This document shows positions 45,526-58,172 of a DNA stretch of 64,000 bases, in pieces. The position numbers and the translations under genes were made by a program. Under the pieces are notes generated by a model, which was not told where the DNA came from, did no database searches, and worked only from the letters and a program-made list of their open reading frames with translations. Positions within the stretch are counted from its first letter, which is position 1. The number at the start of each line of letters is the position of its first letter. The stretch comes from a virus, in the IMG/VR virus record IMGVR_UViG_3300024054_000015, positions 16,046 through 80,045 of that record, one strand, 5' to 3'.

Positions 45526-48144
45526 ATGCCCACAGCAGAACGCAAGCGCCTGGCCTTGGAGCAGATGGCCAACTCCAAAGACTTCGTCATGAACGCTGAG
45601 TTCCAGGCCAAGTTCTTAGACCTCGTGCAAAACGAGTTCCTTAGTCGTGGAGCTTTCATTCAACGCTGGATGGACCCACGTCGGGACTACAACCGTGAGT
45701 GCGGCTATCCCGAGACGTATGAGATCACCAGTGAGAAGTGGCAGGACTACTACGAACGTCATCCCATTGCTGCCCGCGTTGTGGAGATCATGCCTAGCGA
45801 GTGCTGGCAGATAACGCCAGATCTGTACGAGGTTGATGACCCCAACGTCAACACTCCGTTCGAACAGGGCTTTAAGGACTTGGCTGGGGACCTGCGTGGA
45901 GTCCAGTCGTACTACAAGCCTGAGGAAGAGGTCGTGCATCCGCTGTGGGAGTACTGCCGACGGCTAGACATTCTCTCAGGAATTGGTCAGTTCGGTGTGA
46001 TGCTGCTAGGGTACGACGATGGCATTTCCCTGAACCAACCTGTAGAGGGTTGGCAAGAGCCAGAGGTAGGGAACATCACCTGGAACCAAGAGGCACTGCC
46101 TTTCCTCAGAGAGTTGTCCAAGCACTTCCATATCACCGCTAACGGTGAGCTAATATGGAATGCACCAACTCCCGATGAAGAAGAGCAGTTGAAGAAAAAG
46201 TCCAAGTCTGTGCCTGAGGCAACTAACGGCAAGAAGCCCAAGGAGAAGAAGGTCACCGACAAGGAGAACATGCAGAGCTCAGAAGGCTATCTGCCTCCAG
46301 AGCCTACAGGGAAGTCCATGCCTAGTCCTGCGGCCTTCGGTAATGTCAACCCGCAGCAGGGAAAGTATCACGATCCCATGGACCCAGAGGCTTTGAAGGA
46401 CATCCAGCCTCAAGGGCCAGAGCAGCCAGAGTTTGGGGACTTTACTACTGAGGACCAACGCCAACAGCCAGGAATGCAGACCGCTCCCACAGGCAGACGT
46501 AGGCTGATCTATGTGCGAGTGTTCCCCGAGGCGTTAGTGCAGATCATGCGATACGAGCAGAACATGGCGAGTCCACGCTTTGGACAGCCTACCATGTATC
46601 GCATCACGCTCAATGACCCCATGCAGAACCAGACGGGAGTGGGACTGCCTCTAAGCACCATTGAGGTCCACTACTCGCGGGTTATTCACGCTGCTGATTT
46701 GGGAGCTAATGCCGGATCTAGTGAAATCTTCGCTCCTCCTCGCATGAGGCCGGTGCTGAACAACCTCATCGATCTACAGAAGATCTATGGAGCTTGCGGG
46801 GAAGGCTACTGGAAGAACGCTTTCGCAACGCTGGCAGCAGAGACACATCCTCAACTCGGTGGAGATGTTACTCTGGACGTAGAAGCCATGCGGGAGCAGA
46901 TGAAGAAGTGGAGAGATAGCCTGGATCGTGTGCTGGCAGCTACGGGCGTCACTTGGAGGACTATCAGCCCGCAACTGATTGATCCCAATAGCTACGTGCA
47001 GAATCACCTGACTGCCATTTGCATCAAGCTCGGCTGTCCGTTGCGAGTGTTCATGGGCAGCGAACAAGGAGTGTTGGCCGCGAGCCAGGACTCGTACTCT
47101 TGGGGATTGCGAGTTCAAGAGCGTCGCAAGAACTACCTGACTCCTCGGCTAATCGTGCCGTTGATTGACAGACTCATCACCGTAGGCGTGCTGCCTGCTC
47201 CGCAAGAGTCGTACATGGTCAACTGGAACGATGAGCAGAAGCTGACTCCTCAGGAGCAGGCGAGCATCGGTGGAGCAATCACTGGAGCGATGGCAACCTA
47301 CATCAGTGGCCAAGTTGACCAACTGATTGAGCCTGTGACCTGGATGACAGAGGTTCTGGGCTGGAATAGGGAGAAGGCTCAGTCTGTGGTAGATGCCACG
47401 ATGGAGCATATCCTCAAGCAGCAAGAGCAGCAGGCGATGCAGGGGCAGCAGATGATTGACCCCATGACGGGTCAGCCCATGCAGCAGGACGAGATGGGAC
47501 AGTTCATTGATCCCAATACGGGCGAGCCTGCTCCGACAGATGAGATGGGCAAGCCGATGGTGATGGATCCCAATACTGGACAACCGATGCCCGCTCAGCC
47601 TCAGTCGCCACAAGAGAGCCAAGGCCCGCTAGGGGCAGAGGCTTCAGAGGCCGCTCAGGTTAGCCAAGAGATGGATCCTGGAGTTGAGGCACCAGAAGAG
47701 CAGATGGAACCCGAGGAAGAAGAGTTGCCCACAGACCCCGACTCTGGGTTGATGATCGACGAGGAAGCAGGACTAGCTCTTGATCCAGAGACAGGTGACG
47801 TGTACGACATAGAGACTGGAGAAGTAGTAGGGAACGTGAACGATGATGAGCAATATGCTGACGAGTTTGATCAGGAGCAACCGGATCAAGAAGATGGTTC
47901 TGAACTGGAAACTGAAGAACCCGAGGACGGCTTTGAAGACATGGAAGGTGATCAAGAGCTTGGTCAAGAAGACCCGATGGAAGAAGCCCAGGAGCCAGAA
48001 CATCAGATAGATCCAGAAACGGGTCGCATCGTTAACCCTGAGAATGGCTATCAGCTTGATCAGGAAACGGGCGACATCTACACACCTGAAGGCGAGTTGT
48101 GGGGAAATATCAATGACGAGGATGACCAGGAAGAGATGGAATAG
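45526..48144 (+). CDS. Portal protein (DUF1073-like) with internal insertion and long acidic repeat tail
   Basis: YYERHPIAARVVE, SPRFGQPTMY, VHYSRVIH, PLRVFMG; position after terL. Confidence 0.85.
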   Translation: MPTAERKRLALEQMANSKDFVMNAEFQAKFLDLVQNEFLSRGAFIQRWMDPRRDYNRECGYPETYEITSEKWQDYYERHPIAARVVEIMPSECWQITPDLYEVDDPNVNTPFEQGFKDLAGDLRGVQSYYKPEEEVVHPLWEYCRRLDILSGIGQFGVMLLGYDDGISLNQPVEGWQEPEVGNITWNQEALPFLRELSKHFHITANGELIWNAPTPDEEEQLKKKSKSVPEATNGKKPKEKKVTDKENMQSSEGYLPPEPTGKSMPSPAAFGNVNPQQGKYHDPMDPEALKDIQPQGPEQPEFGDFTTEDQRQQPGMQTAPTGRRRLIYVRVFPEALVQIMRYEQNMASPRFGQPTMYRITLNDPMQNQTGVGLPLSTIEVHYSRVIHAADLGANAGSSEIFAPPRMRPVLNNLIDLQKIYGACGEGYWKNAFATLAAETHPQLGGDVTLDVEAMREQMKKWRDSLDRVLAATGVTWRTISPQLIDPNSYVQNHLTAICIKLGCPLRVFMGSEQGVLAASQDSYSWGLRVQERRKNYLTPRLIVPLIDRLITVGVLPAPQESYMVNWNDEQKLTPQEQASIGGAITGAMATYISGQVDQLIEPVTWMTEVLGWNREKAQSVVDATMEHILKQQEQQAMQGQQMIDPMTGQPMQQDEMGQFIDPNTGEPAPTDEMGKPMVMDPNTGQPMPAQPQSPQESQGPLGAEASEAAQVSQEMDPGVEAPEEQMEPEEEELPTDPDSGLMIDEEAGLALDPETGDVYDIETGEVVGNVNDDEQYADEFDQEQPDQEDGSELETEEPEDGFEDMEGDQELGQEDPMEEAQEPEHQIDPETGRIVNPENGYQLDQETGDIYTPEGELWGNINDEDDQEEME

Positions 48145-48354: not shown

Positions 48355-49347
48355 ATGAGCATCCTTCGCGTAGACCCCACTCGCACTACTAGACTTCGTC
48401 GTCAGTTCACTAGTGCGATTAACGTGCGGTTCACCATGTTCAAGAAGGACCTATTGCATCTGTTTCAGCATGGAATGCTGGGCATGGTCCGCCCTACCCT
48501 TAACGCCGAGTGGACCTTTCCCACAGAGCATAAGCTGCAAGAGCTCAAGCGATGGCTTCAGTTTAAGACTGGTCAGCTATTCCTAAAGAACTATATGGAG
48601 GACTCTGCACAGTCTTGGGTTGGGGAGTACATACAGCAGTCGTACCAGCGAGGCTTGAAGAGATCTTGGGGCGACTGGCGTAGGCCGACTCAGGTTATGA
48701 CCATGCCTGGAGACGTAGGAGCTATCTTCCAGAAGGGTGGCGAAGCAGAGTTTATGCGGCAGTCTTTTGGTGGACCTATTCCTGTAGAGAAGGTAAGACT
48801 ACTCTCAACACGCACCTACAGTGACTTGGCTAACGTCACAGAGCAGATGTCCGCACAGATCTCTCGAACTCTGCTGGACGGTGCTGTTAGTGGACTCAAT
48901 CCCCGCAAGGTCGCCAAGCAACTGTCTAAGCTCGTAGACATGAGTAAGGGTCGGGCCTACATGGTCGCCCAGACAGAGACGATCAGGAGCTTTAACGAGG
49001 GAGCCTTAGATGGATTGGAGAACCTGGGAGCTAAGGCTGTAGGCGTGATGGTGGAATGGTCCGTGTCAGGGCTGGGCTACACCGAAAAGGGCTATCCTTC
49101 ACCCTGCAAGAAGTGTGCCCCTTTGGCGGGACTGGTGCTGACCGTTGATGAGGCTAGAGGGATGCTGCCTCGGCATCCGCGTTGTCGGTGCAGTTTCATA
49201 CCCGCGAACGTAGGAGAAAAGACCGCCAAGCAAGTCCGTGATGCTGAACGCATACGAGCGGCCATTGCCCGTTCTGCTAGTGGTGACACCCGTTGGATTG
49301 GAGCAAGTAAGACTATCTCTTCAGAAAGACCAGTGGAGGCCTCATGA
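48355..49347 (+). CDS. MuF/SPP1 gp7-like head morphogenesis protein
   Basis: DPTRTT, RAYMVAQTETIR, CKKC..LPRHPRCRC. Confidence 0.85.
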   Translation: MSILRVDPTRTTRLRRQFTSAINVRFTMFKKDLLHLFQHGMLGMVRPTLNAEWTFPTEHKLQELKRWLQFKTGQLFLKNYMEDSAQSWVGEYIQQSYQRGLKRSWGDWRRPTQVMTMPGDVGAIFQKGGEAEFMRQSFGGPIPVEKVRLLSTRTYSDLANVTEQMSAQISRTLLDGAVSGLNPRKVAKQLSKLVDMSKGRAYMVAQTETIRSFNEGALDGLENLGAKAVGVMVEWSVSGLGYTEKGYPSPCKKCAPLAGLVLTVDEARGMLPRHPRCRCSFIPANVGEKTAKQVRDAERIRAAIARSASGDTRWIGASKTISSERPVEAS

Positions 49348-49667: not shown

Positions 49668-52600
49668 ATGAACATTCCACGAGAAATGTCTCCAAAGTCG
49701 TACAGGCTGGTTTCGTCAATTCTCCACAATGAATGGAGTGATGAAGCCCGGAAGAAGTCTGCCGAGTCTAGGAAGCGCAAAGCCCAACAGCGTGGATCTT
49801 GGTTAGGGTCTACAGCGAAGGCTGTGGGCAAGGCTGGGCTGATCGCCGGTGGAGTAGTCGCTGGAGGACTCCTTGGGGGAAGGATAGCTCCTAGAGTCTT
49901 CGGTAAGGGAAGACTAGCTAGGGTTGGAGAGAACCTCACCGGAAAGGTCGTCTACACCGTTCCGCCTAAGAACTTGGAAGGATTCGAGAAGTGGTCTATA
50001 GGGGCTGCAATTCCAGTCGGTAGGAAGCGGAGTCTAGGCTCGGTACTGGAAGAACAGGGCAAAAGAGCTGGACTCAGAGGAAGAGTTGCCAGAAGACTCA
50101 GTGCCATAGAGAAGTGGTTCGGGATCCCTGAACGACATTACGGTGTTGGCACTGACAAGGGTCACGTGACTCACTTCTCTCCGCATGGAGTAAAGAAGCA
50201 CACCAAAGGTGAGTTCGGGGCCTACTGGTCTGAAAGAATGTCAGATCGCGAGCCTCGTAACATCTGGGTTGTGGACGAGGGTCTGGTAAGCGGAAAGAAG
50301 GGAAGTGTAAGGAAGGCAGAGCTCGCTGCGGTTAAGTCCAGGCTTGCAGCTAGGAGAAACTGGAGAGGCAGAGAACTTAGATGCCTTGGCAAGAAGAACT
50401 GCGAGACCTTCGCTAGAGAGATCTCCAGCGGCAGAAAGCAGTACAAGAGCCGATTGGCTCTTACAGGTGCAGCCGGAATCGCAGGTGGTGGAACCACTGG
50501 TGGAGCGGTCACTGGAGCCGCTACCCTACTCGGCGGGAAGAAAAAGAAGGACTCCAAGAGAAGGATGGTCAGAAACGTCCTACAAGTGATCAACGGTGGT
50601 CCAGGCTCAGGCTTCCGTGGGCACAAGGGAAGACCGGGTCAAAGGGGTGGGTCAGCTCCGGAAGGTGGCGGAATGCTGGGATCGACTACTTATAGACCAG
50701 CTTCGCTTCCATTGTCAGAGTCTCCTCAGGCTCGAGCCAAGCGAATTAAGCTGATCTACACTAAGGCCTCTAGACTGGCCGATGTGTACGGGGATCATGC
50801 GAACAAGCTCGAGCAGAAGAGGCGCAGCAAGCTCCTTCCGCTGAACAGGCGAGAACTGATCGATCTGTTGGAAGCCCACAAGAACGCTGCTGACAACTTC
50901 CGGGCGAGTGCCGAGCAGTCTACCTTGGTCAAGAGATTCACTCCCGAGCAGCAACTCCAACGCTTGGAGCAGGCGAGTCGTCACGAGGAGATGGCAGCTA
51001 AATACCTCAAGAGGCTAAACCGTGAGATCCCAGGTAAGGACTTCGTTAAGGCTGTGGGCAAGACATTCCTCGGAGAACTGGTTGGGGATCTTCCTTCAGA
51101 GATTGGTCGCATGGGTGCGGACATCACTAGGGAATCGATCCGAGGCGGCTTCAAGTCTTTGGTCGGTAAGAGCCCTTCGCTGGGCAAGTTTGGAGAGGGT
51201 GTCTTTAAGGGTGGAAAGGCCAAGGCCGAGGAGTACAAGAATTCAATCCTAGAAGGCGGAAGGATTAGGGACAAGTCCAAAATGCTGAGAGCCGCCATGG
51301 AAGAGGTCAAGAGGCTTCAAGCTATCGACAAGAACATCAAGAAGCAACTCCATGCTCTTGGTGGTCGGGTCAGTCGAGGCAAGCCTAAGTCAGCTTCCGA
51401 GAAGCCGAAGCAATTCAGTGCAGACGCTATTCGGAAAGCTCTAATCGAGGCCGCTAATCAGAAGCTGGCTGATGCCGAAGAGAGGGTTCTGGCCTCGAAT
51501 GAGTTCACAGCCCTGGTGTCTAACCTTGAAGGTCAGGTGCGTCGGGAAACGCTGCACGACCGCGAGTATCTAGTGGCACCCCTAACGATGATCGTTCCAG
51601 GCGTCTTGGCAGGAAGCAAAGGCCCACTTCTATACCCAGAAGAGGAAGTTGCTAAGAACCCGAGCGCCTGGAACGGTATGCCCATCGTGGTCAATCACCC
51701 GATGAAAGACGGGATGCCGGTAGAGGCTCGCAACCCTGCCATCCTCAATCAGTACCAGATCGGTACTGTCTTCAACACCAAGTACAACGGCAAGCTCGTA
51801 GCTGAGGGCTGGTTCGACGTGGACCGCACTCGCAAGACCAACATCGGCATCTACGAGCAGTTGGTCAACAACCGGCCGATTGAGTTGAGTACGGGTCTGT
51901 ACACGGACAACGAGTCCTCTGAGGGAACCTGGAACGGTCGCCCTTATAGCTACGTGGCTCGCAACTATCGCCCGGATCATCTGGCGATCTTGCTGGGCTC
52001 CAAAGGTGCTTGCAGCATTAAGGACGGCTGTGGAGTGCTGATCAACGAAACTGATCCCGTAACCAACATCGTCCAGAAGACTGGTGGAGGCTACAAGCTC
52101 GTCAGCCATAAGGGCAAGAACCTCGGCACGGCCAAGACTAAGGCTGGTATCCTCAAGCGTGAGCGTCAGGTGGAGTACTTCAAGCACGTGAGAAACGAAG
52201 TGCGAGAAGTGATAGACCTCATCAACAACGGTCCCTATCGTGCTGCCGCAGGAAGCTTGTGGAAGGCTGTCAAGTTAGGTGGTGGTCAGGCCATTAAGGA
52301 CGTGCTGGGAGTTGCCAAGAAGACATCTAAGACTAGAAGGTTTATCAAGAAGTTCCCGAAGACTTCTACAGCCGTAGCTGCCGGTGGAATCGGTTATGCT
52401 GCTGGAAAGCGTAAGAGGAGCCAGACGAACAATGCCCTCAAGGCTGGGATCGTAAACATACCCTTCATCAGCAAGAACCGTGCCAAGGCTCGGCGTCAAG
52501 TCGCTGGCTTTGCTGGAGGGGCGGCTGCTGGAGCCTATGGCACAGTCAAGGGTGCTGCTATAGGAACCGCTGTAGGTGGACCAGTTGGAGGGATTATAGG

Positions 52601-53153
52601 AGGGGCTGCTGGTGGTGCGACTGGAGCCTGGGGCGCTCGCAAGATTGCCAAGAGACTTGGCGGTAGCAGTGCTGAGTCCGGTGCAGACCTGGGAGGCCTA
52701 GCAGGTACGTTCGCTCCCATAGGTTCTGGGGCTGCTAGAGCCGCTGGAGCAGCCGTTAAAGCTTCCAGAACCAAAAGGATTATCGGCGGTGCTGGAAGAT
52801 TGGGTGCAGATTATGCAGCTTATGAGGGAACTACTAGAGGTCTGGATAAGCTGGCTTCAAAGTTCAGCAGACGTAGGAAACGCTCTGTGGTAAGTAATGC
52901 CTGGACTGAGGAAGCCCGCCGCAAGTCGCTAGAGACCCGTAGGCGTCATGCTGTAGGTGGAACTGATATTGGATTGGGGATAGCTGGCGGCATGGCTGTG
53001 GGAAAGATTGGGTCGAAACTGGTAGAGCCTGAAATCGACGCAGCGGTGGACAGAATCCGACAGGCTATCATCAGGTCTTTTAAGGATGTGAAGAGGAATC
53101 CGGGTCTTGGTCGTAGAGTGATCAGGCTTCTCAAGTCAATCAGGAGAGTCTAA
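49668..53153 (+). CDS. Head polyprotein: LRAT-like domain + DUF2213 prohead protease + multiple basic/Gly-zipper modules
   Basis: Protease ~51510-52045 (WNGMPIVVNHP, IELSTGLY, PDHLAIL, GACS); HYG...NCETFA LRAT motif; repeated hydrophobic-X-N junctions. Confidence 0.8.
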   Translation: MNIPREMSPKSYRLVSSILHNEWSDEARKKSAESRKRKAQQRGSWLGSTAKAVGKAGLIAGGVVAGGLLGGRIAPRVFGKGRLARVGENLTGKVVYTVPPKNLEGFEKWSIGAAIPVGRKRSLGSVLEEQGKRAGLRGRVARRLSAIEKWFGIPERHYGVGTDKGHVTHFSPHGVKKHTKGEFGAYWSERMSDREPRNIWVVDEGLVSGKKGSVRKAELAAVKSRLAARRNWRGRELRCLGKKNCETFAREISSGRKQYKSRLALTGAAGIAGGGTTGGAVTGAATLLGGKKKKDSKRRMVRNVLQVINGGPGSGFRGHKGRPGQRGGSAPEGGGMLGSTTYRPASLPLSESPQARAKRIKLIYTKASRLADVYGDHANKLEQKRRSKLLPLNRRELIDLLEAHKNAADNFRASAEQSTLVKRFTPEQQLQRLEQASRHEEMAAKYLKRLNREIPGKDFVKAVGKTFLGELVGDLPSEIGRMGADITRESIRGGFKSLVGKSPSLGKFGEGVFKGGKAKAEEYKNSILEGGRIRDKSKMLRAAMEEVKRLQAIDKNIKKQLHALGGRVSRGKPKSASEKPKQFSADAIRKALIEAANQKLADAEERVLASNEFTALVSNLEGQVRRETLHDREYLVAPLTMIVPGVLAGSKGPLLYPEEEVAKNPSAWNGMPIVVNHPMKDGMPVEARNPAILNQYQIGTVFNTKYNGKLVAEGWFDVDRTRKTNIGIYEQLVNNRPIELSTGLYTDNESSEGTWNGRPYSYVARNYRPDHLAILLGSKGACSIKDGCGVLINETDPVTNIVQKTGGGYKLVSHKGKNLGTAKTKAGILKRERQVEYFKHVRNEVREVIDLINNGPYRAAAGSLWKAVKLGGGQAIKDVLGVAKKTSKTRRFIKKFPKTSTAVAAGGIGYAAGKRKRSQTNNALKAGIVNIPFISKNRAKARRQVAGFAGGAAAGAYGTVKGAAIGTAVGGPVGGIIGGAAGGATGAWGARKIAKRLGGSSAESGADLGGLAGTFAPIGSGAARAAGAAVKASRTKRIIGGAGRLGADYAAYEGTTRGLDKLASKFSRRRKRSVVSNAWTEEARRKSLETRRRHAVGGTDIGLGIAGGMAVGKIGSKLVEPEIDAAVDRIRQAIIRSFKDVKRNPGLGRRVIRLLKSIRRV

Positions 53154-53504
53154 GTGACTACTGTAACCATCAACAACGCTCAGCAGCGAGAGATCGAGTC
53201 TCGTATGCTGATGAAATCTCTTACGATCAACATTCCTGGATATGCCCCTAAGAAGCGTGGACTCGTTCGTCGTACGTTAGGGGCTGGATTAGGAGCAGTC
53301 GGCGGTGGCATCAAAGGAATGATGGGTGGAGCGGTCAAGGGTGGTACAGTTGGAGGACTTGGTGGTTCGATGGTTGGAGCGGCTCCTATGGGAGCCACTG
53401 CTGGAGCTCTTGGTGGTGGTGCCATTGGCGGAATTCGTGGAGCCATGCGGGGGGCTGCTTACGGAGCTCGTAAGTTCTCGAAACCTAAGGTCATTTATCA
53501 ATAG
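53154..53504 (+). CDS. Glycine-zipper protein with scaffold-type leader
   Basis: TVTINNAQQREIE leader; GxxxG repeats. Confidence 0.65.
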   Translation: MTTVTINNAQQREIESRMLMKSLTINIPGYAPKKRGLVRRTLGAGLGAVGGGIKGMMGGAVKGGTVGGLGGSMVGAAPMGATAGALGGGAIGGIRGAMRGAAYGARKFSKPKVIYQ

Positions 53505-53517
53505 CGGGAGAAGCACG

Positions 53518-54306
53518 ATGCCCACAACGGTAACGATCAACAGATCGGAACAGCAGCGAGTTGAGAACCAACTTGTTGCTAATGGACTTGCTAAGGACAT
53601 CGGTCATGGATGGTCCTTCAGCAGGGACTTGATAAAGTCTGGAATAAAGAAAAGACCACGGATGGTCGATCCAAACCTGGGGTTCTCTGTGGGGTTTGAA
53701 GGTCACCGTCTGAAGGAAGCTATCAAAAGGCATCCAAAGACGACCGCAGGCGTTGCTGGAGTAGGAGCTGGTCTGGTTGGTGCTGGCTATCTTGCAGGGA
53801 AGAGGAAAGGCAAAAAGAAAACCACCAACAACGAGGTTTTGATCAACCACTCCGAGCAGCAACGAGTTGAGCGGCAGATGTTGATCAATCAACTGTCACA
53901 GAACTACCAGCCAGTGGAGATGATCGACAATGCCTCCATAGGAAAGATGGTGAAGGGTGGTAAGGCAATGGCCCGGCGAGGATTTAAGAGGTTGTCCTCT
54001 GGAGTCCAGTCATTCAAGACTGGAAGTGAGGTTGGCACCAAGTATGGCGCGAAGGCTAGAAAAGGTATAGGAAAGTCAAGCACTCCTGCCAGCTACAAAG
54101 CTGGGGTGATCTTTGGATCCACCGCTGGAAGGGCTGGAAAGGCTGCTGCAATCCAAGCCAAGCGAGCCGGGCTTAGAGCGAAGAAATTTGCTAAGAGCCC
54201 TGCTGGAAAAATGACTGGAGTAGGTGCGGCGGCTGCTGGTGGAGCCGCTTTTGGAAGTACGGTTAGTAGCCGCGCTCGTCGCAAGAAGGCTAGAAACGAT
54301 TATTGA
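53518..54306 (+). CDS. Two-module basic protein with duplicated scaffold-type leader
   Basis: TVTINRSEQQRVENQLVAN and VLINHSEQQRVERQMLIN. Confidence 0.7.
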   Translation: MPTTVTINRSEQQRVENQLVANGLAKDIGHGWSFSRDLIKSGIKKRPRMVDPNLGFSVGFEGHRLKEAIKRHPKTTAGVAGVGAGLVGAGYLAGKRKGKKKTTNNEVLINHSEQQRVERQMLINQLSQNYQPVEMIDNASIGKMVKGGKAMARRGFKRLSSGVQSFKTGSEVGTKYGAKARKGIGKSSTPASYKAGVIFGSTAGRAGKAAAIQAKRAGLRAKKFAKSPAGKMTGVGAAAAGGAAFGSTVSSRARRKKARNDY

Positions 54307-54368
54307 CCAACAATTCACAGACGACCATTGTTGGCTCGTCTAAACGTTCGTTTACAAGGAGAGCCTAA

Positions 54369-55082
54369 ATGGCCAGAATGACTTTGAACCAAGCAGAGAG
54401 GCGAGAGTTGATCTCGTCAATGGTCACCAACTGCGCTGGTTGGGACAAAGAGGACTTGGACATTCTTCACAACATGAGCGACGACAAGCTCTGGGTCCAT
54501 GCCCGAGGCTGTGCGCAGTTGATCGCCAATGAGGAAGAAGACGCCGGTGACCTTAGCGACGAAATCGAACCCTCGGCTGCGACAGAGTTGGAAAGCTCTG
54601 CCACAGAAGGGCTTGAGGATGAAGAGGTTGATGGCAATCAGGGTGAGCAAGGTCCACCCGCTGTGGAGCCTGACGCCGAGACCAAGGATCAACCCAAGAA
54701 GTGTTGGGATGAGGAAGGAAACGAGACCTCTTGCCCCGAAGAAACGGCTGATGGTGAAAACGTGACTGAAAACCAATACCTGAACTTTCTGCCGCCTCGT
54801 ATCCGCAGCGTGGTCGTCAACGCCATCAAGTTTGAGCAGGCCCAGAAAGCTCAGTTGGTTGGTTCCATCACGGCCAACAGTCGCAACCGCTTCAGTTCTC
54901 AGTACCTGATGCGCATGAGCTTGGACGAACTCCAGGCTCTGGCGGATCTGGCCTCGCCTCGTCGTTCGAATCAGCTTTATGTTGGAGCCGCTGGCGGTCC
55001 GGTTCTCAACCAGTCGGACGTTGACCGCGAAGACATTCTGACTGTTCCGACTCTCGAGTTCACCATGAGCTCGAAGGGTTGA
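54369..55082 (+). CDS. Putative capsid scaffold protein
   Basis: Acidic, helical; directly upstream of decoration and capsid genes; AAGGAG RBS. Confidence 0.6.
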   Translation: MARMTLNQAERRELISSMVTNCAGWDKEDLDILHNMSDDKLWVHARGCAQLIANEEEDAGDLSDEIEPSAATELESSATEGLEDEEVDGNQGEQGPPAVEPDAETKDQPKKCWDEEGNETSCPEETADGENVTENQYLNFLPPRIRSVVVNAIKFEQAQKAQLVGSITANSRNRFSSQYLMRMSLDELQALADLASPRRSNQLYVGAAGGPVLNQSDVDREDILTVPTLEFTMSSKG

Positions 55083-55113: not shown

Positions 55114-55608
55114 ATGGGTGCTGTTGACAGTCACAACACGATTGTGTTGACTCCGGCTCCGGCTGGACGATTTCTGGAGGGTCTCCTGGACGTAACCACG
55201 TCCTTGAAGCCTGGACACTTGATGGCCATCAAGGCGGCTACCGAGCCGGTCGGTGGTCGTCACACCTGGACGAAGTATGAAGGCACTGCTGGTCATCGCA
55301 CACTGATTGCGATTCTGCTGGAAAACGAGATGGTGGGACTCACCTGCGAAGACGCCATCAGCGACGGTCAGCGTATTCGCCTGTACTGTCCGATTCCTGG
55401 AGATGAGTTGCTGGTTCGCGTTAGTGCCGCTGGTACGGGTACTGGCGATGCCTTGGCCATTGGAGATAAGGTGATTGCCTCTAACGATGGAACGTTTAAG
55501 GCCAACACTGGCTCTCCAGAGTCTGAGCCGTTCATTGTCATGGAGACAGTGGCAGACGTGACTGCGTCTCCTGGTGATCTGGTTCACGTGATGTTCACAG
55601 GATTCTAA
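55114..55608 (+). CDS. Head decoration/cement protein
   Basis: LKPGHL..; IGDKVIASNDGT; position before MCP. Confidence 0.65.
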   Translation: MGAVDSHNTIVLTPAPAGRFLEGLLDVTTSLKPGHLMAIKAATEPVGGRHTWTKYEGTAGHRTLIAILLENEMVGLTCEDAISDGQRIRLYCPIPGDELLVRVSAAGTGTGDALAIGDKVIASNDGTFKANTGSPESEPFIVMETVADVTASPGDLVHVMFTGF

Positions 55609-55653: not shown

Positions 55654-56907
55654 ATGTTTGTTGATTCCTTTGTTCAGAATGAGGGCTGGTCCGGTGATTC
55701 GCTGGGCAGCGCCCTCGAACTCGTAAGGGACCGTGGGACCATTTGGGATCCAGGTCTCATGCGACCGTACCTGGACAGTAAGGGCCGAGCCTGTGTGACA
55801 GTGAACACAGGTCGCAAGGCCCCTCGCAGGGACGAGCGCGGTGGTGGATTCATTACCAACGAGCATGGGATGCCCAAGATGTTTCCCATTCTCGAGAAGC
55901 AACTGATCTCCGAGCGTGCCGCTCGAGGACTGGCAGTTCCAACGGTCAACGCAGGCAACCTGCTCACGAAGGAAGCCTGGGTGATGTTGGACAACGCGGT
56001 CCTGGAAGCTGCACGGAATCGCCTGCGTGCTTGGGCAGATCTTCGCGCTGCCAACACGTATGGTGGTTTCGACGGGATGGCCAATCCCATCCTGGAGTTC
56101 GAACGAGTGACGGACGTGGGTGAGGCCGTAGAAGACATGGACGGCATGACCGAGGCCCGCTCGTTTGCTCCGAAGTTTGACTTGCAAGGAATGCCCTTGC
56201 CGATCACGCACAGTGACTTCTTCCTGTCGGCTCGCTTCTTGGCCGTCAGCAAGAACAAGTCACAGCCCATGGACACCATGCGTGCGGAGATGGCTGGACG
56301 CCGTATTGGTGAGCGTATTGAGCAAGTCACTATCGGTTCAGCAACAGGGATGCTCTATGGTGAGGCCGCTGGCAGTCGCTACACTTATGCGAACGACAGT
56401 CAGGTCTACGGCTATATGACCCATCCGGATCGGTTGACGTCCAGTGGACTCACTACTCCTACTGGATCCAACGGTACGACCATTTTGGGTGATTGGCTGT
56501 CTATTCGTGAAACGATGTACACGAACAAGTTCTTTGGCCCGTACATCGTGTACACGTCCACGGATTGGGATCAGTATCTGGACAACCTGTTCAGCACGAC
56601 TGAGCCGAGTGCGGGCACGTTGCGCAAGCGATTGCTGGAGATCTCTGATATCCAAGACATTCGTCGCTTGGATTATCTCACGAGTGCCAGCTATCCCTTC
56701 ACAACGATCTGGGTCCAAATGACTCCAGAAACAGCACGGGCTGTCAACGGTATGGAGATCACCACTGTTCAGTGGCCCTCCATGGGTGGCATGCGCTTGA
56801 ACTTCAAGGTCATGTGCATCCAGGTGCCGCAGATTCGCTCTCGCTTCACTGGTCCCAACACGACCACGGCGAAAGCTGGTGTCTGCATTGGTACTCACAC
56901 TTCGTAG
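55654..56907 (+). CDS. Major capsid protein (HK97 fold, linocin/encapsulin-like subgroup)
   Basis: VN-AGNLLTKEAWVMLDNAV, PLPITHSDF, FKVMCIQVPQIR; strong AAGGAGG RBS; downstream terminator. Confidence 0.85.
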   Translation: MFVDSFVQNEGWSGDSLGSALELVRDRGTIWDPGLMRPYLDSKGRACVTVNTGRKAPRRDERGGGFITNEHGMPKMFPILEKQLISERAARGLAVPTVNAGNLLTKEAWVMLDNAVLEAARNRLRAWADLRAANTYGGFDGMANPILEFERVTDVGEAVEDMDGMTEARSFAPKFDLQGMPLPITHSDFFLSARFLAVSKNKSQPMDTMRAEMAGRRIGERIEQVTIGSATGMLYGEAAGSRYTYANDSQVYGYMTHPDRLTSSGLTTPTGSNGTTILGDWLSIRETMYTNKFFGPYIVYTSTDWDQYLDNLFSTTEPSAGTLRKRLLEISDIQDIRRLDYLTSASYPFTTIWVQMTPETARAVNGMEITTVQWPSMGGMRLNFKVMCIQVPQIRSRFTGPNTTTAKAGVCIGTHTS

Positions 56908-57376: not shown

Positions 57377-57814
57377 ATGCCTAGAGCCACTAAAGATGCG
57401 GTTATTGAAGTGGTAGAGTGGCAGGACGGAACTATCTCCGAAGAGTCCGCCATTTCTTTAACTCCATTTCTTAGGCAGGCTAACATCCTAGTTGACTGGT
57501 TGCACAGTAAGGACACAGACAACGAACTCAACGATGCAGCCCTGACAGCTATCGAAGTTCAGTTGGCTGCACACTTCTACTCTGTGCAGCGTGATCCGCA
57601 GCTTCAGTCTAAGAGTACAGATGGAGCCTCTGGTTCGTATCAAGGGGCTACAGGCTTCAGTCTACAAGCCACTCACTACGGACAGACTGCAATGCTGTTG
57701 GATGTAACTGGTAACTTGACCAAGAGAAACATCGAGGCTCAGCAAGGTAAGAGAGTCTCCGTGACAACTTGGTTGGGATGGCAAGACCATTCAGAGGATC
57801 CGTACGATGCCTGA
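57377..57814 (+). CDS. Head-tail adaptor-like protein
   Basis: LAAHF..GASGSY..THYGQTAMLLD. Confidence 0.7.
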   Translation: MPRATKDAVIEVVEWQDGTISEESAISLTPFLRQANILVDWLHSKDTDNELNDAALTAIEVQLAAHFYSVQRDPQLQSKSTDGASGSYQGATGFSLQATHYGQTAMLLDVTGNLTKRNIEAQQGKRVSVTTWLGWQDHSEDPYDA

Positions 57815-58172
57815 CGTACATCTACTAGTTCTAACGAATTGGTGTACTGTCTGGCAGCGGCAAGACACGAAGACTCGGTATGGTCAAGCTAGGGTTTCTT
57901 CTCCAGAGAATATGAAGTGTCGGTGGACGGTAAGAGATGCCGACAGTGTGGGACAGGATTCTACTACTGAGTTCTACCCTAGATCAGTCATGGTTGCAAA
58001 ACAGGTTGCTCTAGGGAGTTACGTGGCGAGGGGAAAGATTGCAGATCTTCCAACGTCACCTCAGTATTTTGAAGTGGTAGGAATTGACGAAATCTCCGAT
58101 GTGAAGGGTAGACATACGTCTTATCGGCTAACTCTTCAGAAGGCTTCCAAGACCCTTCCGGAAGTCATCTAA
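57807..58172 (+). CDS. Head closure-like protein
   Basis: CTVW..RYGQ..KCRW; position. Confidence 0.6.
   Translation: MPDVHLLVLTNWCTVWQRQDTKTRYGQARVSSPENMKCRWTVRDADSVGQDSTTEFYPRSVMVAKQVALGSYVARGKIADLPTSPQYFEVVGIDEISDVKGRHTSYRLTLQKASKTLPEVI

Follow-up and report, generated by a model that had tools for sequence, protein, structure and literature searches.

To our knowledge, the way in which proteins other than shell, portal and scaffold are selected for packaging is understood in very few phages, essentially from the targeting tag of phage T4 and from the sharing of a whole domain by nested protease and scaffold genes. The nested design is known from lambda C/Nu3 and from herpesvirus UL26/UL26.5. 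Another solution is provided by the cargo-loading peptides of encapsulins, short conserved peptides that address unrelated cargo to the inside of an HK97-fold shell; they are C-terminal, bind the shell protein directly and stay uncleaved, and neither a scaffold nor a protease takes part. We analysed a 64-kb window of a single 80,045-bp contig of an uncultured phage (IMG/VR record IMGVR_UViG_3300024054_000015), in which a short leader peptide precedes basic modules encoded by two open reading frames (ORFs), A and B, and resembles the N-terminus of the protein encoded by the next gene, ORF C, a scaffold. Judged from sequence, the leader is probably a removable tag for loading cargo into the virus head.

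The prohead protease sites of giant phages phiKZ and SPN3US, which are unrelated to the window phage and far larger, end in Glu, and we know of no description of a common tag in these phages that resembles the scaffold start. In T4, a capsid-targeting sequence (CTS) is carried by internal proteins IPII and IPIII (Mullaney and Black 1996, reviewed in PMC9958956). The CTS is about 10 residues long and closes with a Glu site; the review states that it is not conserved among the other core proteins (PMC9958956). In phage 80alpha both the capsid and the scaffolding proteins are N-terminally processed by the host protease Prp; the N-terminal sequence of the scaffold is required for assembly and its cleavage is dispensable (PMC5744158). 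For phiKZ and SPN3US, propeptides of ejection or inner-body proteins are reported to be removed by the prohead protease (PMC5694885, PMC7411985, PMC10052503).

ORFs A (116 residues, 53154–53504), B (262 residues, 53518–54306) and C (237 residues, 54369–55082) belong to a head module that lies entirely on the + strand. ORF A starts with a GTG that abuts the stop codon of the upstream polyprotein gene, with AGGAGA upstream, and its product begins M-TTVTINNAQQREIESRMLMKSLTIN. The product of ORF B begins, at the ATG at 53518, with MPTTVTINRSEQQRVENQLVAN and contains an internal EVLINHSEQQRVERQMLIN at 53833–53889, and that of ORF C begins MARMTLNQAERRELISSMVTN. All four peptides had been pointed out in a preliminary, sequence-only reading of the window, and each was found on the + strand where that reading had put it. 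A regular expression made from them matched only those four places in six-frame translation, and nothing else resembling them was present in the six-frame translation of the window or of the whole 80,045-bp genome.

The ORF A leader (residues 1–26, 53154–53231) consists of M-TTVTIN, the 13-mer NAQQREIESRMLM and K-SLTIN, and has no Gly. It matched a leader hidden Markov model (HMM) with an E-value of 1e-9, and leaders of this type, preceding the module termed G, are also found in proteins P0047 and P0055. Leader B1 at the start of ORF B (residues 1–22, 53518–53583) reads MPTTVTIN-RSEQQRVENQLVAN and matched the HMM with an independent E-value (i-E) of 6e-9. The internal leader B2 (ORF B residues 105–138, 53830–53931) reads NEVLIN-HSEQQRVERQMLIN-QLSQNYQPVEMIDN, contains three Asn that are 14 residues apart and matched a 34-residue leader HMM with an i-E of 2e-18. 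When all 68,266 stop-free 18-mers were scored without gaps (BLOSUM62) against the ORF A leader, the top three were B2 (41), B1 (40) and ORF C (38), followed by a score of 29.

Relatives of the leader were collected with a profile of the Q-type module (leader plus body; alignment A3 of sequences from the window, P0034 and five loci). Among 1.84 billion representative proteins, 21 clusters were matched, at E-values from 7e-39 to 5e-4. Together the window, six related loci and these 21 clusters gave 28 leader copies, 17 of them N-terminal and 11 internal. The consensus is hThN-NSEQxRVExQhhhN, where hThN can be given as hT(I/V)N, over a total of 20–35 residues; in 12 of the 28 copies a second 14-mer, xLxxxxxPxEhhDN, follows. 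Each leader element is closed by Asn: the first Asn is kept in 27/28 copies (the exception has Asp followed by Asn), the second in 26/28, and the spacing between them is always 14. Every internal leader sits behind a poly-Lys stretch and another upstream Asn. Invariant and near-invariant columns of the Q family fall nearly all within the leader, while the bodies diverge to 32–43% identity, and in the alignment the leader is thus the best-conserved part of these fast-evolving proteins. The earlier proposal that the leaders of ORF A, of the ORF B start and of the interior of ORF B form a real family is borne out by these 28 aligned copies. Scans of IMG/VR with the Q-family alignment and with a back-translated leader pattern added nothing new, and the possible starts before the internal leaders of loci L002 and L027 have only weak Shine-Dalgarno-like sequences.

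The leader HMM also matched three small ORFs that relatives carry among the connector genes, downstream of their capsid gene (L027 10410–10742 and 10764–11078; L002 12132–12437). They lie between two connector-like genes and start MITQ(P/S)ST(T/V)VT(I/L)N-TSEQRRA.N.VLL(N/K); their bodies are not Gly-rich and, as compared by eye only, look unrelated to modules G, X and Q and to one another. A short N-terminal peptide is therefore common to the G, X and Q modules and these three ORFs, all putatively head-internal. Since it is also found on such unrelated-looking ORFs, the leader is more than the conserved end of one paralogous family and, by these matches, is a conserved, portable element. At the corresponding connector position the window phage lacks an ORF; ORFs 57377–57814 and 57807–58172 overlap there.

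What follows the leader differs sharply from it in composition. The leaders contain 0% Gly and have an isoelectric point (pI) of 5.5–9, whereas the bodies contain 15–31% Gly and have a pI of 10.9–11.8, which supports the view that the leader marks the point at which Gly-free sequence gives way to a basic, Gly-rich body. The body of ORF A, module G (53232–53504), opens IPGYAPKKRGL, is 31% Gly with a pI of 11.8 and contains no acidic residue. In ORF B, module X (residues 23–104, 53584–53829; pI 10.9) comprises an uncharged Gly/Ala stretch and a poly-Lys end, KKKTTNN, and the module Q body (residues 139–262, 53932–54306; pI about 11.5) is rich in Ala, Gly and Lys and ends RRKKAR. The G bodies of ORF A, L002, L027, P0044, P0047, P0054 and P0055 have a common first residue and open IPGY/PPKKRGL; the leaders ahead of them are about 9, 20, 26 or 64 residues long, and every one ends hhxN. 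In L002 a single ORF encodes modules G, X and Q, with no separate leader ahead of X; the window has a stop codon between G and X-Q and a full leader at the new chain start. This comparison suggests a pattern of one tag per chain. The stop of ORF A corresponds to the PKV(I/T/V)YN junction of the fused P0044, P0047 and P0055.

Every cargo body contains about 19 uncharged residues, rich in Gly and Ala, with a poly-basic run behind them (ORF A residues 73–91, 53370–53426; ORF B residues 76–94, 53743–53799, and 232–250, 54211–54267). The Kyte-Doolittle values of 1.0–1.3 are below the usual transmembrane threshold; these stretches are glycine-zipper-like and could possibly be membrane-active after ejection.

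The likeness between leader and scaffold was assessed in several scans. Among the 68,266 18-mers, those that scored best against the scaffold N-terminus, apart from itself, were the N-termini of ORF A (38) and ORF B (34). A profile of six cargo leaders, made without the scaffold, was run over the whole genome (84,561 windows), and the scaffold N-terminus was the best non-cargo match, with a score of 27.8 (z 5.8) compared to 18.0 for the next. When a profile of 27 unique leaders was compared with that of 32 scaffolds, the best of 216 offsets placed the leader on scaffold residues 2–21 (22.8, next 10.6). After permutation of columns, 0/3000 scores reached this maximum over offsets (P<3e-4). The scaffold N-terminus itself (residues 1–21, 54369–54431) reads MA-RMTLN-QAERRELISSMVTN, with Asn7 and Asn21 in leader register. 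The likeness that the sequence-only reading had noticed extends to register and Asn spacing, and no other non-cargo window of the genome scored higher.

Weaker likenesses were seen elsewhere in the head module. Scaffold residues 148–170 (54810–54878, + strand), VVVN-AIKFEQAQKAQLVGSITAN, form a second leader-like element; it was the third-best match to the scaffold N-terminus in the BLOSUM62 scan and the second-best offset in the profile-profile scan, and V148, N151, F155, I167 and N170 are invariant in the 32 homologs. The portal protein (residues 1–16, 45526–45573) begins MPTAERKRLALEQMAN and shows the AER...hxN pattern at the same spacing as the scaffold start. This segment reached z 4.1 in the cargo-profile scan; for the N-terminal region of the portal only distant relatives were matched, starting at query residue 6 or later. 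In the polyprotein, residues about 389–406 (50832–50885) read LLPLN-RRELIDLLEAHKN, with RRELI and an Asn-bracketed layout as in the scaffold start; the Asn spacing is 13 residues, and z was again 4.1. A possible match of a second segment, scaffold residues 22–35 with the second cargo 14-mers, is not claimed: the Asn spacing agrees, and hhalign did not extend its alignment there.

The identity of ORF C, a putative scaffold in the sequence-only reading, was supported by comparison with relatives. It has 32 homologs, 46–100% identical, in which T5, L6, N7, R11, E13, N21, C22 and W25 are invariant. An HMM of these homologs (A1) matched the C-terminal part of DUF2213-led ORFs, that is, the C-terminal half of protease-scaffold fusions, in 20 related loci with E-values from 6e-22 to 1e-2 (for example L003 residues 297–504 of 508, L005 residues 208–436 of 444 and L011 residues 830–1014 of 1041); one further related locus was matched at 0.13 only. 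By these matches ORF C is a scaffold. The genes for decoration and capsid follow it directly, and its product is acidic (pI 4.15). Protease and scaffold are encoded by single ORFs in, among others, L003 (7781–9307), L005 (5184–6518), L008 (8148–9416), L011 (6313–9438), L015 (42–1313) and L017 (73–1128). Matches in the fusions often begin at HMM position 1–10, and the scaffold start motif, there L-T/K-x-x-E-R-x-x-h-h-x-x-L-h-x-N-C-x-C, is therefore internal. Just ahead of it an in-frame ATG was present in 10/10 fusions examined, with a Shine-Dalgarno sequence (GGAG, GAGG or AAGGAGG) 5–10 nt upstream of that ATG. The fused relatives thus look like carriers of a nested scaffold gene of the lambda C/Nu3 type. 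The Shine-Dalgarno sequence of the fusions is partly encoded by a conserved K-E-G-G peptide. When longer proteins were searched with the window scaffold, the close clade yielded no fused form, though this counts as weak evidence.

An AlphaFold2 (AF2) model built on the scaffold alignment (predicted local distance difference test, pLDDT, 63) has helices at residues 8–19, 27–34 and 38–57, a disordered acidic region at 57–133 and a confident helical domain at 134–195. Behind the N-terminal 21 residues the scaffold (54432–55082, + strand) accordingly comprises the N-domain helices up to residue 57, an acidic disordered part (58–133), the helical C-domain (134–195) and a tail after Asn214. No relative was found in the Protein Data Bank by sequence or by Foldseek. 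The first scaffold Asn (LTLN) is confined to the close clade that has tagged cargo, and the second (hhxN-C) is conserved widely. In the scaffold domains of the distant relatives L003, L004, L005, L008, L009, L012, L019 and L022 a Cys pair (N-C-x-C, often followed by W) stands directly after hhxN; of this pair the window clade has only one Cys (NCAGW). Near the C-terminus (residues 214–237, 55008–55082) the invariant Asn214 precedes an invariant tail, D-R-x-D-x-L-x-x-P-x-x-x-F, whose invariant residues are D219, R220, D222, L224, P227 and F231. In known scaffolds the C-terminal end is the region that binds the capsid protein, and the arrangement recalls the M-site of herpesvirus scaffolds, at which a capsid-binding tail is removed.

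The presumed enzyme that removes the leaders is the DUF2213 capsid-maturation protease domain of the upstream polyprotein (residues 623–802, 51534–52073, + strand; Pfam and PHROG matches). An AF2 model of the domain from 13 sequences (pLDDT 79; predicted template modelling score 0.75) had T4 gp21 (5JBL) as its best Foldseek match (E 8e-4, probability 1.0), followed by the proteases of Epstein-Barr virus, Kaposi's sarcoma-associated herpesvirus, human cytomegalovirus and herpes simplex virus, and the domain is thus predicted to have the gp21/assemblin fold. Invariant H68, S132 and D161-H162 of the 13-sequence alignment (A4) are candidate catalytic residues. The domain (residues 610–815, 51495–52112) is flanked in 13/13 sequences by hhxN at its start and DGCGV-h-x-N at its end. 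Motif hh.N, defined as [VILMF][VILMFTA]xN, was counted against within-protein shuffles. Eight head proteins contained 40 motifs versus 12.7 expected (scaffold, 7 versus 1.2; polyprotein, 11 versus 3.8; ORF B, 5 versus 0.9), and 16 other window ORFs contained 23 versus 26.8 expected. Hence, hh.N is threefold enriched in head proteins only. We infer from this distribution that the protease may cut after Asn with hydrophobic residues at P3/P4, and removal of the leader after Asn is plausible.

The capsid protein contains similar sites. In the window (residues 1–58, 55654–55830) a conserved FVQN lies near its start and CVTVN about 50 residues in. Among the capsid proteins of 20 relatives, 15 have FhxN within the first 10 residues (two have Asp instead), and the Asn of CVT(V/I)N-TG(R/K), about 50 residues into the protein, is kept in 19/20; either may be a maturation site. 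Since the leader opens with hTIN, the same as VT(V/I)N in the capsid protein, this opening may be merely a canonical cleavage site. The conserved 13-mer behind it would then need an explanation other than cleavage.

Based on these results we propose, with a likelihood that we put a little under even, that the leader is a removable address tag which imitates the scaffold N-terminus and replaces the covalent link to the scaffold seen in relatives. This reading is supported by the portability of the tag, the presence of one tag per chain, the fixed starts of the bodies and the likeness to the scaffold. ORFs A and B would encode internal head proteins, of cargo or ejection type, built of very basic Gly/Ala-rich modules. 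A Gly-free propeptide would precede all Q-type modules and each chain that is translated separately. It would consist of a short N-terminal piece that ends in a canonical hT(I/V)N site, a 13-residue NSEQxRVExQhhh with its closing Asn exactly 14 residues after the first, and often a second 14-mer closed by DN. As it resembles scaffold residues 1–21, the propeptide probably occupies the docking site of the scaffold N-terminus in the assembling core, and so would take the place of the covalent protease-(cargo)-scaffold linkage of related phages. After shell assembly, the gp21/assemblin-fold protease of the upstream polyprotein would cut after the bracketing Asn, chopping the tag into peptides of 5–14 residues; the freed basic bodies would stay with the DNA or be ejected, and the scaffold would be degraded at its own hhxN sites. 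We infer in this way the presence of ORFs A and B in proheads, the cleavage after Asn and the binding to the scaffold core. The whole sequence of events taken together, in which cargo poses as scaffold through a copy of the docking segment, enters the core and is released by an Asn-specific gp21/assemblin-fold protease at a 14-residue pitch, we regard as rather doubtful.

Several observations weigh against the address-tag proposal. A search (hmmsearch) with the leader HMM missed the scaffold. With hhalign the expected register was obtained (leader 2–20 on scaffold 3–21; P 0.006–0.02) at a probability of only 2–7%. Because the leader HMM and hhalign barely or do not reach the scaffold, the three cargo copies stand as a robust family and the likeness to the scaffold appears real but modest. 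The shared helix that had been suggested is seen in the AF2 model at scaffold residues 8–19 with a pLDDT of just 56–66, and an amphipathic helix in the 13-mer was rejected, the hydrophobic moment being below that of shuffles in cargo and scaffold alike. The scaffold N-termini are almost invariant across the clade. The G modules of four relatives are without the 13-mer, which is therefore not required for every cargo. The Q modules retain the leader even when internal, where one N-terminal tag for the chain would do, and the leader may therefore serve Q itself or its processing. Finally, a search of the literature on DUF2213 specificity and on prohead-protease cleavage after asparagine revealed no phage protease reported to cut after Asn.

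The same data would also fit a leader that was only a site-spacer-site processing cassette, inherited from an ancestral protease-cargo-scaffold polyprotein. The polyprotein would have broken into genes, with cassettes left at the N-termini; the likeness to the scaffold would reflect common descent of the junctions, and cargo would enter otherwise, e.g. by attraction of bodies of pI 11–12 to the acidic scaffold linker or to the portal tail, as the opposite charge of bodies and scaffold would allow. Indeed, distant relatives carry the scaffold motif within a single long ORF, at the junction behind the protease and an insert of 300–1600 residues; 11/28 leaders are internal, preceded by poly-Lys and by another Asn; the break between fused and split forms falls at hhxN (as at the ORF A stop, the junction in P0044, P0047 and P0055); and the leader hTIN is identical to the capsid site. 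However, a spacer alone would not hold NSEQxRVE and the exact 14-residue spacing over 28 copies while bodies drift to 32–43% identity. Moreover, the leader stands on unrelated small ORFs far from the protease-scaffold block, and other predicted sites, at the capsid protein start and the protease ends, are without the 13-mer. We consider an inherited cassette unlikely, though the strongest of the alternatives. The absence of the segment from other predicted substrates argues against the idea that it is an exosite for the maturation protease, which would mark substrates and order the cuts and would not bind the scaffold core. An exosite would fit the fact that scaffold and cargo are both predicted substrates with the densest hh.N motifs, that the segment is always flanked by sites and that in fusions it comes next after protease and linker. 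In the window, however, the protease is part of a polyprotein that has no scaffold domain, and therefore docking on the protease would still amount to targeting. A protease-docking role is in our estimate improbable.

Least probable, and in our judgement quite unlikely, is that nothing is removed and there is no tag: the segment would stay in the mature proteins, e.g. for oligomerisation or for binding of membrane or DNA in a paralogous family, the resemblance to the scaffold start would be a compositional coincidence, and even a role of ORFs A and B in lysis or in a membrane would be conceivable. The weak hhalign and HMM support for the scaffold link, a faint PHROG spanin match of ORF B (E 0.008), the uncharged Gly/Ala stretches with their KD19 (Kyte-Doolittle) values of 1.0–1.3 and the possibility that A, B1 and B2 are local duplicates would agree with this. 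It is hard to reconcile with a scaffold register that ranks first genome-wide and withstands permutation, or with unrelated bodies behind the same leader, leaders of variable length ahead of a fixed body start, the sharp compositional break at Asn sites and the confinement of hh.N enrichment to head proteins. The position of the genes argues against it as well: the pairing of tag and scaffold was looked at in seven loci, and cargo genes lie between protease and scaffold in 7/7 loci with DNA. The order protease polyprotein, A, B, C, decoration-like gene and capsid gene is also found in L001, L002, L027 and L028.

Among described systems the T4 CTS appears to be the closest functional analogue of the proposed address tag. 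Both are short N-terminal peptides common to basic proteins that are internal to the head or, for the leader, predicted to be so. The CTS guides its proteins to the scaffolding core, is cut off by the prohead protease at its closing site and is portable to other proteins, and the leader would act likewise. The leader differs in its length of 20–35 residues, in having two or three Asn sites at 14-residue spacing, in occurring also inside multi-module chains and in resembling the scaffold's own N-terminus. It closes with Asn, not Glu, and there is no sequence similarity; the proposed tag is an analogue of the CTS and not a member of that group by descent. Relatives L003–L023 share with lambda C/Nu3 and UL26/UL26.5 the fusion of a gp21/assemblin-fold protease to a scaffold domain with an internal scaffold start, and the entry of a passenger into the shell by sharing scaffold sequence would be common to all. 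In the window, by contrast, the scaffold is a separate gene, and passengers share with it at most about 20 scaffold-like residues, not a whole domain. Processing of a scaffold and another head protein at their N-termini by one protease would be the point in common with 80alpha, where the second protein is the capsid protein, not cargo, and the enzyme is a host cysteine protease. As in phiKZ and SPN3US, many head-internal proteins would be cut by a gp21-like protease during maturation. Like an encapsulin peptide, the leader would address unrelated cargo by a short sequence, but it is N-terminal or internal, and a scaffold and a protease are proposed to take part. Relative to known tags, the new features would be its length, the architecture of its Asn sites, its occurrence in multi-module chains, its resemblance to the scaffold and the proposed specificity for Asn.

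In this clade the boundaries of a tag can be read off the sequence, and the tag occurs in natural fused, split and re-tagged forms; it adjoins the scaffold whose start it resembles, and the protease appears to cut after Asn. If the address-tag proposal is true, head cargo and mature protein ends could be predicted in uncultured phages, a small tag would be at hand for loading foreign proteins into HK97-fold shells, and the assemblin/gp21 protease family would gain a new specificity. If cargo does pose as scaffold throughout the sequence of events described above, there would also be a maturation code readable from sequence, and the change from nested protease-scaffold genes to free cargo genes with tags could be traced. 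For specialists in phage assembly the interest lies in precise and cheap predictions for proteomics and loading assays.

ORFs A, B and C matched no family in Pfam or PHROGs. For ORF B, the Protein Atlas listed only unnamed viral clusters and a homolog search found just one other cluster; a metagenome scan yielded 4 loci. The remaining genes of the head module, all on the + strand, are those of the portal (45526–48144; PF06381, phrog_146), a MuF-like protein (48355–49347), an 86-residue winged-helix-like ORF between the MuF-like gene and the polyprotein, the 1161-residue polyprotein (49668–53153) with the DUF2213 core at residues 623–802, a decoration-like ORF (55114–55608) and the major capsid protein (55654–56907; DUF6260, phrog_771), which shares 30% identity with capsid proteins of Brevundimonas phages. 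In P0038, P0046 and P0050 the body after the last Asn of the Q-type leader opens (V/A/R)W(T)D(A/V)ARKAA. This motif recurs, as N-EWSDEARKKS and N-AWTEEARRKS, where the first (49734) and last (52902) modules of the polyprotein begin.

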